Shown one piece after another: positions 5 to 13,326 of a stretch of DNA of 20,000 nt. Location: the IMG/VR virus record IMGVR_UViG_2579778687_000002. The stretch is one strand, 5' to 3'. The stretch comes from an uncultured virus (IMG/VR IMGVR_UViG_2579778687_000002). Lineage: Duplodnaviria; Heunggongvirae; Uroviricota; Caudoviricetes. The notes under the pieces were generated by a model. It worked only from the letters and a program-made list of their open reading frames with translations. It was not told where the DNA came from and ran no database searches. Both the position numbers and the translations under genes were made by a program. Each line of letters opens with the position of its first letter. The stretch's first letter is position 1.

Positions 5-276
5 GCCCCGGTTCGCCGGGGCTTTACCGCACTGGAGGGCAAGACGATGAGCACTCAAGCTCAAGCATTCCACCTCATGATCGAAGTCAAGTATGGCGAT
101 AGCCCGTCCTATTGGCATCCGGCTTTCGAAGCTGAGACCCAAGAGGAGGCCAACGAGCTGTTCCAGCACTTCCCCCAGGCCTACGGTGAAATTTCCCGCC
201 GCATCATGGTAGGCGCCCCTTCTACGGACTGCACAGAACTGCGGCCCTGCTAAGCAACCCGCCCCGGTTCGCCGGG
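5..276 (+). repeat. 16-bp direct repeat GCCCCGGTTCGCCGGG (5-20 and 261-276), each copy a UUCG-loop hairpin, flanking ORF 47-253
   Basis: Identical 16-mers read directly from the sequence; CCCGG-TTCG-CCGGG stem-loop; the first copy is followed by TTT. Confidence 0.85.
47..253 (+). CDS. Hypothetical phage protein (68 aa)
   Basis: ORF with a GGAGG RBS upstream, lying between the two repeated hairpins. Confidence 0.65.
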   Translation: MSTQAQAFHLMIEVKYGDSPSYWHPAFEAETQEEANELFQHFPQAYGEISRRIMVGAPSTDCTELRPC

Positions 277-317: not shown

Positions 318-530
318 ATGAAGCGAAACGCCAACCCGGCGGCGACCGTTGCTGCCTGGAATTCCGCATACCGCGTCGGCACCGAGGTCGACTACCGATT
401 CCATCGCGGCGCGGCGCCGAAGCGCACCAAGACGACAACCGAAGCCCAGCTCCTCGGCGGCCACACTGCTGTCGTCTGGCTCGCCGGCGTGTCCGGTTGC
501 GTTGCCCTTTCCCACTGCGAGCCGGCCTGA
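318..530 (+). CDS. Small phage protein (70 aa), paralog of the C-terminal domain of the downstream CsrA fusion
   Basis: GGAG RBS. Motifs PAxxVxAWNS, VDY, PxRTxT and AVVW are shared with residues ~59-123 of ORF 565-936. Confidence 0.85.
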   Translation: MKRNANPAATVAAWNSAYRVGTEVDYRFHRGAAPKRTKTTTEAQLLGGHTAVVWLAGVSGCVALSHCEPA

Positions 531-564
531 GCCCGCGCGCCCAGCATCCTGATCGGAGGCACAC

Positions 565-936
565 ATGCTGATCCTCACCCGCCGAGTCGGCGAAACCCTG
601 CATATCGGCGACAACATCACCGTCACGGTCCTCGGCAGCCAAGGCGACCAGGTGCGCCTCGGCATCACAGCCCCGGACAACGTCGCCATTCACCGCTCCG
701 AGATCTACCAGCAGATCGGCAACGTCCGTCCGGTGCCGCCGGCGGAGCTGGTCGAGGCCTGGAACAGCAGGCATTCCGGCCCGGCCACTGTCGACTATTG
801 CGCGTACCGGGACGCCACACCCGTTCGAACTCGCACGCTCGGGCTGGCGCGGCTATCCGCCGCCGGCATGGCGGTCGTGTGGGTCGAGGGCCAAGCCACG
901 CCGGTGCTGCTGCGCAACTGCACCGCTGTCTCTTGA
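565..936 (+). CDS. csrA: CsrA/RsmA-family RNA-binding protein with an extra C-terminal domain (123 aa)
   Basis: N-terminus [24 protein letters not shown]...[17 protein letters not shown] closely matches RsmA/CsrA, including Arg44; GGAGG RBS. Confidence 0.93.
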
Positions 937-992: not shown

Positions 993-1562
993 TTATTGGG
1001 AAACTAACGACTTACATCTGGACTCCATTCGCTTTCTTGCTGTTTCAGCTTTAGAAACAATTCTTAAGAGACCCTCACCATCAATTTTGTAATATATCTT
1101 TCCAGCCTTGGGAGCTATGTAATCTTCAAGATCTTTAGTCAGTTGAAAAACGTCTAAGAAATCAGCTAAATCCTCGCAATTTCTCAATTTATCCAGGTCA
1201 ACAAACTTGAACAGCTCTCTGGCATTCCTAAGCATATTCACCTGATTTTTTATTTGTTCTTCATAGACATATTCACGATGTTCTTCAACGACCTGAACAA
1301 TGATTCTCTCTGCATAATGGGCAATTGAGACCATCTTCCTAAGCCTGTTCTCTTGCTCCTCCTCACGATCTAACTCCGACTGCCTATGCTGTGTATCAGC
1401 TATATAAAACGCATAACAGATTGCCAGCACCGAACCGATAGCCTGAACCCAGGCTGCCGCGACAGAGTTTGTACCTCCATCAGCTGCAACCATAAATATA
1501 ATCGCCACAACAACCAAAAAAAGCCCAACTCCGACAACCTTAACTCCAGTCTTCCCATCCAT
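993..1562 (-). CDS. AT-rich moron: membrane protein with two N-terminal hydrophobic segments and a helical cytoplasmic domain (189 aa)
   Basis: AGGAG RBS; hydrophobic stretches VVGVGLFLVVVAIIFMVA and AAAWVQAIGSVLAICYAFYIA; markedly lower GC and opposite orientation to the backbone. Confidence 0.85.
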   Translation of the reverse strand: MDGKTGVKVVGVGLFLVVVAIIFMVAADGGTNSVAAAWVQAIGSVLAICYAFYIADTQHRQSELDREEEQENRLRKMVSIAHYAERIIVQVVEEHREYVYEEQIKNQVNMLRNARELFKFVDLDKLRNCEDLADFLDVFQLTKDLEDYIAPKAGKIYYKIDGEGLLRIVSKAETARKRMESRCKSLVSQ

Positions 1563-11401: not shown

Positions 11402-12466
11402 ATGAGGAAAAGACATCCAACGGACGAGATATATCAGAGCATTGCCGACAGAAGGTCTCTGAAGGCTAGCAGATCGACCAGAAAATACAATCCAAACAAA
11501 GCCACTCATGCCAAGAGAATACTTGACAGAGAAGTGGTGCCAGCTCCAAGCAGCATCTCTTTCTTCGGAAAAGAGAATTACAAAAAATTCTTTGAGTTCA
11601 TAAAGAAACTGCACATCACATCATCAAGGTCGAAAATAATAATAGATCTACAAAAAACAAAAGACATAAAAATTTCCGCCGCATTAATTCTCTACGCAAC
11701 AGTAGAAATTATTCAAAAAAAACAAAAAAAGAAAGATCCTGTTAAAACAACAGTGTGCAGGCACTCCGGCGTCGCAAATGGACTACAACGCATCGGCCTC
11801 TGGAGACTTACGAAAGAAAGCAAGCATATTCGAAAAAATCTCTCCATGGGATTTGAGGTTTGCTCAACCTCCTACAAAGACCAACAGAGTGGCGACACCT
11901 CTCAACTCAGGCGCGCAATAACGTATGTTCAAGAGGCAATCAAAACCTCGGGAATGAATGAAGAAGAGGGGGTAAAGGCATTTGCAGCAATAACTGAGTC
12001 TTTTAGTAACGTCTGGCAACACGCATATGATGACGATTTCTATCCAAAACCTCTGCCAGATGATGAAAAAAATTGGTGGATAGTTGTCGAGAAAATTGAA
12101 AACCAATTATTCATTGCAGTGTACGACTCAGGAGTCGGCATACCAGCAACACTTTCAAAAAAACCTTGGTACAGCGATATAATTGATCATCTATTGGGTT
12201 CACTTGGCTTCCCCAGCTCTAACGACAGCTTAGCAATTAGAGCAGCGGTTGAGTATGGTAATTCGAGGTTTAAGACGGGAGGCAGAGGAAAAGGACTGGC
12301 CGAAGCGCAGGACTTTGTCACCGCGAACCCTGAAGGACAAATGCTAATATATAGTGGGCTTGGCTCTTACGAATTCAACGCTATGACACCTAACATAGAC
12401 AGCATAGAACCTCTGCCAGACAGAATGCCGGGCACATTCATACAGTGGAATATCCGGCTAGGATAA
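11402..12466 (+). CDS. GHKL (HATPase_c-type) ATP-binding protein with an N-terminal STAS-like region and no H-box (354 aa)
   Basis: N-box ESFSNVWQHAY, G1 DSGVGI, G2 GRGKGL, G3 PGT; AAGGAG RBS; AT-rich. Confidence 0.85.
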   Translation: MRKRHPTDEIYQSIADRRSLKASRSTRKYNPNKATHAKRILDREVVPAPSSISFFGKENYKKFFEFIKKLHITSSRSKIIIDLQKTKDIKISAALILYATVEIIQKKQKKKDPVKTTVCRHSGVANGLQRIGLWRLTKESKHIRKNLSMGFEVCSTSYKDQQSGDTSQLRRAITYVQEAIKTSGMNEEEGVKAFAAITESFSNVWQHAYDDDFYPKPLPDDEKNWWIVVEKIENQLFIAVYDSGVGIPATLSKKPWYSDIIDHLLGSLGFPSSNDSLAIRAAVEYGNSRFKTGGRGKGLAEAQDFVTANPEGQMLIYSGLGSYEFNAMTPNIDSIEPLPDRMPGTFIQWNIRLG

Positions 12467-12469
12467 TTT

Positions 12470-12793
12470 ATGAAAAGCGAAATCACAATTGATGTTGCCA
12501 AAAGTTTTTCTGACATGCCTTACGGCAGGAACGAAAAAGATGGAAAATTTAACGGATTCGCATTTAGAAAACTTCTGGTTGAGAAACTCAGCGAATACCA
12601 GAAGGTAAAGGTTGACTTAAATGGTACATTAGGCTGCGGATCATCCTTCACAGATGAAGCCTTTGGTGGCCTGGTAGCATATGAAGGTTTTAAGCCAGAA
12701 GAAGTACTAGAAAGGGTCGAAATAATTTACAGATATGACAGCATAGTGAGAACCATAAGAAAATATATTGAAGATGCTAAACCAGCGAGCTAA
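12470..12793 (+). CDS. STAS-like (DUF4325-type) protein (107 aa)
   Basis: PYGR..DG..NG..FR...VKVDLNGTLGCGSSFTDEAFGGL pattern typical of stand-alone STAS-like DUF4325 proteins; 3 nt after the ATPase stop. Confidence 0.85.
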   Translation: MKSEITIDVAKSFSDMPYGRNEKDGKFNGFAFRKLLVEKLSEYQKVKVDLNGTLGCGSSFTDEAFGGLVAYEGFKPEEVLERVEIIYRYDSIVRTIRKYIEDAKPAS

Positions 12794-13326
12794 TGGAGAC
12801 GACTATGTCATTACCATTTTGGTTAGCCATGGCGGGCTGGGCATTCACTTATTTAAATTCTAGAGCCTTAGCGAAGCAAGCTGAGGCTAATGCTATTGTC
12901 GCGACCGTAGACAAAATGCTGCAAGAAATTTCGGACGAGAATTACAAATTTTGGCGCGATGCAGACTCTTCCGACCAAGAGCACACAATGAAATGCCAAC
13001 TCTTTCAATCCTACATTACATTCAGGTGCAATTTTATAGAACTACGCATAAAGGCCTTAAGAATAAAGTGCAGCAACCGTATTATGTGGGACGGGAACTT
13101 TGATACTTTCGAAACAAAGGCTATTACTCTAATAGCGGAGCTTAGGGATCTGGCCACGTTAGATTCAGAACAAACTAACGATGTCGACCAGATGCAACGA
13201 AGACGAAAAATAATGCTCGTAAACAAAAAGACGATTGATCTTCACGAAATAATGAGCGATTTTATTCTAAGTCGCTTCAGATCCATATTTAGCTTCGAAA
13301 AGAACAAAGAGGAAGCATCACTATAG
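12793..13326 (+). CDS. Hypothetical protein with an N-terminal hydrophobic helix (177 aa); third gene of the cassette
   Basis: TAATG overlap with the STAS gene; LPFWLAMAGWAFTYLNS hydrophobic segment followed by an all-helical domain. Confidence 0.8.
   Translation: METTMSLPFWLAMAGWAFTYLNSRALAKQAEANAIVATVDKMLQEISDENYKFWRDADSSDQEHTMKCQLFQSYITFRCNFIELRIKALRIKCSNRIMWDGNFDTFETKAITLIAELRDLATLDSEQTNDVDQMQRRRKIMLVNKKTIDLHEIMSDFILSRFRSIFSFEKNKEEASL

Follow-up and report, generated by a model that had tools for sequence, protein, structure and literature searches.

A phage-encoded RsmM/Bci regulator of Pseudomonas aeruginosa carries a C-terminal domain, predicted to be a small SH3-like barrel, that is also encoded by the neighbouring early gene

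CsrA/RsmA homologues encoded by temperate phages of P. aeruginosa, F116 gp24 among them, were grouped as the RsmM subfamily by Sobrero and Valverde in 2020, who proposed their structured C-terminal extension to act as a protein-interaction scaffold (PMC7366521); the available text of that study does not present the extension as a separate domain, as a paralog of the upstream gene or as a member of a wider family. Ambroa et al. (2020) deleted one such gene, bci, from prophage AUS531phi and found that, relative to the wild-type phage, killing curves were weaker and lasR, rhlR, qscR and pqsR transcripts more abundant, with increased motility and reduced biofilm and pyocyanin (PMC7546807). Mapping of the published primers indicates that the ORF and 6 further bases were cleanly removed; no complementation of the deletion was found in the bci sections of that paper, whose available parts established no mechanism for Bci. 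In a further report, bci was present in 4 of 13 prophages (PMC10449497), and phage RsmA homologues have been proposed, citing F116, as possible suppressors of CRISPR-Cas (PMC8450108). On plasmids, the Rsm homologue RsmQ binds RsmY/Z, heterodimerises with host RsmA and RsmE and switches behaviour away from motility (PMC9928087). The literature searched yielded no published RNA binding, dimerisation or partner for RsmM.

The window analysed here, a 20,000-nt stretch of DNA at the right-hand end of a virus record of 66,261 bases, has genes for tRNA-His, -Leu and -Arg along with folD at its edge. The record also encodes an integrase, a RecE-like nuclease, a methyltransferase, a cI-like repressor, a terminase and a portal protein. 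Its gene order matches that of phage F116 (repressor, DUF1654, p27, p26, p25 and p24, the latter two corresponding to the stand-alone and fusion genes discussed below) and, together with the gene matches, points to an F116-like P. aeruginosa prophage. Both genes fall in the initial part of the leftward early operon, which follows the cI-like repressor, and lie on the plus strand of the window: a stand-alone small-barrel gene of 70 aa (318–530; orthologue of F116 gp25, phrog_9165) is followed by rsmM/bci, a fusion gene of 123 aa (565–936; orthologue of F116 gp24, phrog_5527) with a ribosome-binding site, TCGGAG, at 553–558 (plus strand). Residues 1–51 of the fusion constitute a CsrA/RsmA domain (565–717, plus strand), and residues 55–123 a predicted C-terminal SH3-like barrel (727–933, plus strand), which represents the rare tail allele III within the RsmM subfamily.

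The immediate surroundings hold several further features. The preceding early-operon gene (47–253, plus strand; 68 aa, phrog_12273, at the F116 gp26 position) is flanked by a GC-rich hairpin repeat at 5–22 and 261–277 (29 bases, 83% alike, 256 apart), which may serve in RNA processing or as a junction at which genes are swapped. Immediately before the window, the first operon gene (L001 16086–16256; 57 aa, phrog_15496, F116 p27 position) encodes a protein that, by eye, looks like another small beta-barrel. Directly after rsmM, a stable hairpin (931–987; z –3.5) precedes an AT-rich inserted gene (993–1562, minus strand) with an N-terminal membrane segment, and different phages hold different inserts in the slots before and after rsmM. 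A second AT-rich stretch in the early operon (11402–13326, plus strand) is a cassette of three genes (354, 107 and 177 aa), presumably including an ATPase-like and small STAS-like pair, judging by eye; neither insert has a PADLOC match. A scan around the genes returned no promoter, and the 4.7 kb around both of them contained no Rfam match indicative of a phage-encoded Rsm sponge RNA. Contigs from RNA libraries of four studies overlap parts of the region and are uninformative on level, strand or RNA origin. The prophage contained no third copy of the barrel domain. It also yielded no second match to CsrA, so the RefSeq label ‘CsrA-like regulator’ of the late-region F116 gene F116p47 (L274 363–569) may be loose.

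The gene at 565–936 is the already published phage regulator RsmM/Bci, and not a new gene. Its product is 77% identical to Bci of AUS531phi, with which it shares the length of 123 aa and the CsrA domain at residues 1–51, and 66% identical to F116 gp24. The full fusion occurs in 46 phage records, where it is annotated as Bci, carbon storage regulator or F116 gp24, and 45 of the 46 Pseudomonas phage records listed, including phages in the published RsmM table, are 65–80% identical to it over the full length. AUS531phi differs from the present prophage in bearing tail allele I and in lacking the stand-alone gene.

An earlier note, made from the sequence alone, had taken residues 1–51 for a near-canonical RsmA with Arg44 intact. 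The assignment stands: the protein matches Pfam CsrA (PF02599; E 2.5e-24, 85.4 bits, cut-off 27) and the NCBIfam csrA equivalogs NF002469 (90.4, cut-off 73) and TIGR00202 (82.9, cut-off 70.1), and both H43 and R44 are present. ‘Near-canonical’ needs qualifying, for although 36 of 52 residues in the CsrA half equal those of P. aeruginosa RsmA (alignment to 7yr6), K26, K38 and R50 of the host protein are Q, D and Q here, and both CsrA alleles of the fusion have an acidic residue at position 38. Residues L2, L4, T5, R6, R7, I42, H43, R44, E46, I47 and Y48 are invariant in all 45 distinct fusion proteins. R44 is essential for GGA recognition (PMC7366521), and R31, K38, H43 and R44 lie on the surface bound by the antagonist CesT (PMC5864733). 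A model of the fusion monomer (N-terminal pLDDT 63–83) adopts the five-strand plus helix fold and matches RsmA (1vpz) and CsrA (2bti) at E 3e-4 to 5e-4. From these features, the CsrA half likely dimerises and binds GGA-containing RNA.

The replaced basic residues bear on an explanation in which RsmM would dampen the host system, its heterodimers with RsmA having weakened RNA affinity and a steric tail, so that RsmA targets would be de-repressed. Loss of RsmA lowers motility and increases biofilm and pyocyanin. Phage carrying bci shifted all three in this direction (PMC7546807), Rsm heterodimers do exist (PMC9928087), and the substitutions at positions 26, 38 and 50, including the shared acidic residue, would fit a subunit with impaired affinity. 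Yet the RNA-contact residues are invariant in 45/45 proteins, beyond what a poison subunit needs; transcripts of quorum-sensing regulators were lower in the presence of bci (PMC7546807); and RsmQ, which does bind RNA, also shifts behaviour away from motility (PMC9928087). We consider dampening unlikely.

The C-terminal part of RsmM is related to the product of the gene upstream. As the earlier note had claimed, the two align, with residues 3–67 of the stand-alone protein opposite residues 55–119 of the fusion over 65 gap-free positions (27 identical, 42%; E 8e-13). The alignment score of 113 was reached by none of 10,000 shuffles (mean 25, maximum 58), and the corresponding PHROGs families cross-match. 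At the DNA level, the copies are 49% identical in register (40% at third positions); their split is therefore old, and a recent duplication is ruled out. The duplication is real and appears to be unpublished, no description of it having been found in the literature searched, which covered few subscription papers.

The two copies have since taken different courses. The stand-alone protein keeps the family motif L-x-G-H-T-A-V-V-W as well as Cys61 and His66; indeed, it has all of G21, L46, G48, H49, T50, C61 and H66, which are 84–97% conserved in 146 family representatives (upper bounds, because the seed profile favours these motifs). In the window tail all seven (stand-alone numbering) are replaced, and tail alleles I and II likewise lack them; the core residues W14, N15, T39, A43, V52, W54 and L64 are retained. 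A quick tree unites the tails in a single clade whose stem measures 1.61 changes per site, compared with 0.32 for the stand-alone, and groups them with the stand-alone and a megaplasmid copy at weak support (82). Tail identity is 41–45% to the megaplasmid copy and 37–46% to the neighbouring stand-alone, so a tandem duplication is not proven; the tail probably descends from a copy of the domain on a Pseudomonas mobile element, the neighbour being the simplest candidate. Purifying selection acts on both genes, with dN/dS of 0.19 for the stand-alone (34 alleles) and, for the tail, 0.04 within allele I and 0.22–0.30 between alleles. Residue losses, long stem and renewed constraint together suggest that the tail changed its surface and was then conserved again.

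Fusion genes combine two CsrA alleles with three tail alleles (about 62–70% alike), shuffled among loci. Three rare chimeras (P0009, P0012 and P0295) join the first half of the stand-alone to the C-terminal half of tail allele I across 10 in-frame bases that the two have in common; they are likely deletions between the paralogs that removed csrA, or else assembly artefacts.

Whether the two genes form a pair was assessed in IMG/VR using the 80 best among 258 matches to the stand-alone and, for the fusion, the 80 best among 135, loci that represent related prophages rather than independent events. Nine of the 80 fusion loci had less than 2.5 kb upstream and were set aside (eight of them hold the stand-alone); among the other 71, with at least 2.5 kb, the stand-alone was present in 32 and missing in 39. 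Conversely, all 73 P. aeruginosa-type stand-alone loci carried the fusion 0.2–1.3 kb downstream, with inserted DNA separating the genes in 22 pairs; the remaining seven of the 80 stand-alone loci were distant relatives without CsrA. Phage records gave a similar result, 35 of the 46 with the full fusion holding the stand-alone (87–96%) and 11, from eight distinct phages, lacking it, including AUS531phi, the source of the measured bci phenotype. The annotated phage collection contained no record with the stand-alone and without the fusion. Co-occurrence, run in both directions, is thus one-sided, and the stand-alone gene was shown to be dispensable for fusion-bearing phages. Linkage in one operon also explains why the stand-alone always has the fusion downstream. 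CsrA-only truncations were absent from the 160 loci, all 80 fusion-query loci holding both halves.

Allele matching gave a less clear-cut picture. Stand-alone proteins are 87–100% identical across loci, and in 51 distinct pairs each of tail alleles I, II and III meets the commonest stand-alone types. Distances between stand-alone and tail correlated weakly in a Mantel test (r 0.15, 36 of 2,000 shuffles, with few stand-alone differences), and those between stand-alone and the physically nearer CsrA half more strongly (r 0.24), as linkage predicts.

These counts weigh on the two-part device suggested in the earlier note, in which the free domain would bind the RsmM tail or compete for a shared partner and thereby tune RsmM, with the silencing of defence mRNAs as a conjectured use. 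The invariable presence of the fusion after the stand-alone (73/73 IMG/VR loci, 35/35 phage records), the common operon, purifying selection on both genes and a few homologues with two or three copies of the domain, which self-association would allow, are compatible with such a device. However, the stand-alone is missing from 39 of the 71 fusion loci, alleles show little co-variation that linkage would not explain, and hosts devoid of CsrA also carry the family. Moreover, the tail has lost surface residues common to the stand-alone, distant phage and acyltransferase copies, which makes a shared partner unlikely. The device is accordingly doubtful at best, and the stand-alone is likely an older, independent early gene rather than a partner.

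Structure prediction assigns the shared domain to the SH3-like small beta-barrels. The AlphaFold model of the stand-alone (pLDDT 92) comprises a helix and a five-strand barrel with a 3-10 turn, and that of the tail has the same barrel fold (pLDDT about 90 over residues 61–120). Fold searches returned Tudor, PWWP, chromo barrel, uL24/KOW and retroviral integrase C-terminal domains at Z 5–6.5 and rmsd of about 2–3.5; the 33 chains at Z of at least 5 are nearly all small barrels among the matches listed. None of these families reached Z 8 or more with the stand-alone barrel: the best values (6.4–6.5) were tied among several families and Foldseek E exceeded 0.05, so that the likeness is one of fold and not of family or function. 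Unnamed phage proteins match the barrel fold with TM up to 0.91, and the ESM Atlas returned unnamed clusters only, with DHFR_2 and DUF entries at 0.8 as no more than leads. Neither the stand-alone nor 21 aligned relatives matched Tudor, PWWP or KOW Pfam profiles; Pfam, NCBIfam and PADLOC offered no named family for the domain; and PADLOC, whose library holds models of defence rather than counter-defence, matched neither the stand-alone nor the fusion.

The family itself is large. A profile search recovered 3,859 clusters with the barrel domain at E ≤0.001, and the best 146 divide into 83 with the domain alone and 63 with extensions of at least 40 residues. Barrel copies occur in Betaproteobacteria, Actinomycetota, Acidobacteriota, Planctomycetota and other groups, and on 99 plasmid records (91 from Pseudomonas), those listed being megaplasmids. 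One plasmid copy, a stand-alone on NZ_MN894888.1 (L275 4986–5198), sits in a run of small unknown genes, and CsrA was not found on that plasmid. A few homologues (P0042, P0067, P0274) contain two or three tandem barrels. None of 253 homologous proteins had CsrA fused to the barrel, no CsrA was found near distant barrel copies in 44 viral and 51 bacterial loci (the latter including short 3-kb loci), and all five whole host genomes tested that carry the domain were devoid of CsrA; the ancestral job of the domain therefore cannot depend on CsrA. Distant stand-alone copies are mostly surrounded by early-region genes, with no constant neighbour among 103 in 26 of the 44 loci (rough gene calls).

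Given such folds, the tail might be a second nucleic-acid-binding module, narrowing or extending the RNA targets of RsmM or holding it on DNA, and the stand-alone a small nucleic-acid-binding early protein. Among the structures similar in fold are a PWWP domain with ssDNA, uL24/KOW and the C-terminal domain of integrase. Of 146 homologues of at least 150 residues, six had a Pfam match, one of them a coiled-coil and the other five DNA-binding or repair domains; the nameable phage fusion partners of the barrel are HTH, MerR, FtsK-gamma, zinc-finger and glycosylase domains. The stand-alone is basic (pI 9.6) and the tails carry a net charge of +2. Across 146 domains of the family, however, median net charge is +0.5 with only 19% at +3 or more, the peptide-binding Tudor and chromo barrels match equally well (all Z <6.6), and the acyltransferases described below use the barrel in no nucleic-acid context. 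A nucleic-acid role is hence improbable in our view. The earlier suggestion of an interaction module fits the fold, the neutral charge and the many fusions; on these grounds and the predicted structure, the barrel tail likely serves as a protein-binding adaptor.

The sole sequence match in the PDB was the C-terminus of a malonyl-CoA:ACP transacylase (3g87, residues 333–393; E 3.4e-10 and 2.1e-9). Since 3g87 was not among the top matches of three fold searches, the domain may be unresolved in the crystal, and we claim no solved structure for it. Of 299 Burkholderiaceae genomes scored, 14 have a match, and in 11 the barrel ends a stand-alone acyltransferase of 358–408 residues, of the malonyl type found in polyketide clusters (L254–L264); these counts are lower bounds, large genomes having been scored for part of their candidates. 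Three of the regions were read further (L276 7494–8690, L277 6801–7922 and L278 9848–11008): in two, the barrel acyltransferase is accompanied by a ketosynthase that stands alone, an HMG-CoA synthase and a modular PKS, and in the third by a second acyltransferase beside it and an NRPS. Two acyltransferase copies derive from 0.5-Mb genomes of 21–22% GC. Like the stand-alone, most acyltransferase barrels have N15, G21, T39, A43, L46, G48 and H49 and the L-x-G-H hairpin is mostly kept; unlike it, they are appendages of chromosomal enzymes, form a separate clade in the quick tree and lack C61 and H66. No description of this link was found in the literature searched (again with few subscription papers), and we regard it as a new lead.

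As stand-alone enzymes, acyltransferases of this kind work in trans on carrier domains; this, along with the near-neutral charge of the family, favours a protein-docking role. The barrel could then be a previously unrecognised module that docks onto a conserved bacterial protein, for instance acyl carrier protein. If this long shot were true, polyketide acyltransferases would be guided by the barrel to their assembly lines, the free early barrels made by thousands of phages and plasmids would seize the same host protein, and in P. aeruginosa phages a re-evolved copy would tether a CsrA repressor to a host machine, with the free copy able to modulate it. That the tail is instead a passive appendage of an accidental fusion, kept for stability only, would suit the loss of the conserved family surface and the divergence of its alleles but is hardly credible given the low dN/dS within and between alleles and the absence of CsrA-only truncations.

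On balance, we think it somewhat more probable than otherwise that RsmM is an RsmQ-like early Rsm protein whose tail is a repurposed adaptor, and that the stand-alone is an early gene that is older and independent. RsmM would be made early in infection or induction and would add Rsm-type binding sites to the cell, binding leaders as well as the RsmY and RsmZ sponges. It may further mix with host RsmA as heterodimers, as RsmQ of plasmid pQBR103 does, and so shift the host regulon. The tail would have been captured from a Pseudomonas mobile-element copy and have evolved a new surface that ties the RsmM dimer to some protein or alters its target range. In line with RsmM working independently, the bci phenotype was measured in a phage without the stand-alone; stem length, residue loss and the low dN/dS of allele I support a new tail function, and barrel fold, near-neutral charge and acyltransferase fusions an adaptor. 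Action of the CsrA half on the host Rsm network, as the earlier note envisaged, is plausible and had already been proposed (PMC7366521, PMC8450108), and heterodimers of a mobile Rsm protein with host Rsm proteins have a precedent in RsmQ (PMC9928087). RsmQ serves as the working model for the CsrA half; it is plasmid-borne, and the available text on it does not mention the barrel domain (PMC9928087). Against our favoured reading, the missing K26, K38 and R50 might reduce the affinity of RsmM for RNA, one-way dependence would also predict a stand-alone that never occurs without the fusion, and the stand-alone/tail correlation, though weak, exceeds that of shuffles. In addition, nucleic acids are as frequent as proteins among the ligands of SH3-like barrels.

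The rsmM leader offers a further lead. In all 39 other loci read, it contains ACGGAG, an Rsm-type hexamer (ANGGAN), at the position of TCGGAG in the present copy; the leader pattern picked up 39 of 80 loci and missed 41 starts. The ribosome-binding site might thus double as an autoregulatory site that is weakened here. No stable hairpin presenting GGA in a loop was predicted at this leader, and as 12 of 70 F116 leaders share such a hexamer (5/27 left-early, 7/28 late), autoregulation is to be taken as a lead only. An enrichment of Rsm sites in phage late genes was also considered and rejected, the F116 leader counts showing no pattern.

Prophages of P. aeruginosa commonly carry RsmM/Bci, which occupies the switch governing acute versus chronic behaviour as well as CRISPR-Cas expression. 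Recognising its tail as a domain that folds separately and has three alleles provides clean cut points for tests. The unnamed barrel family is large, spans several phyla and is found at the end of polyketide acyltransferases as well; with the same family present in phages and acyltransferases, a single hunt for its partner could annotate both.
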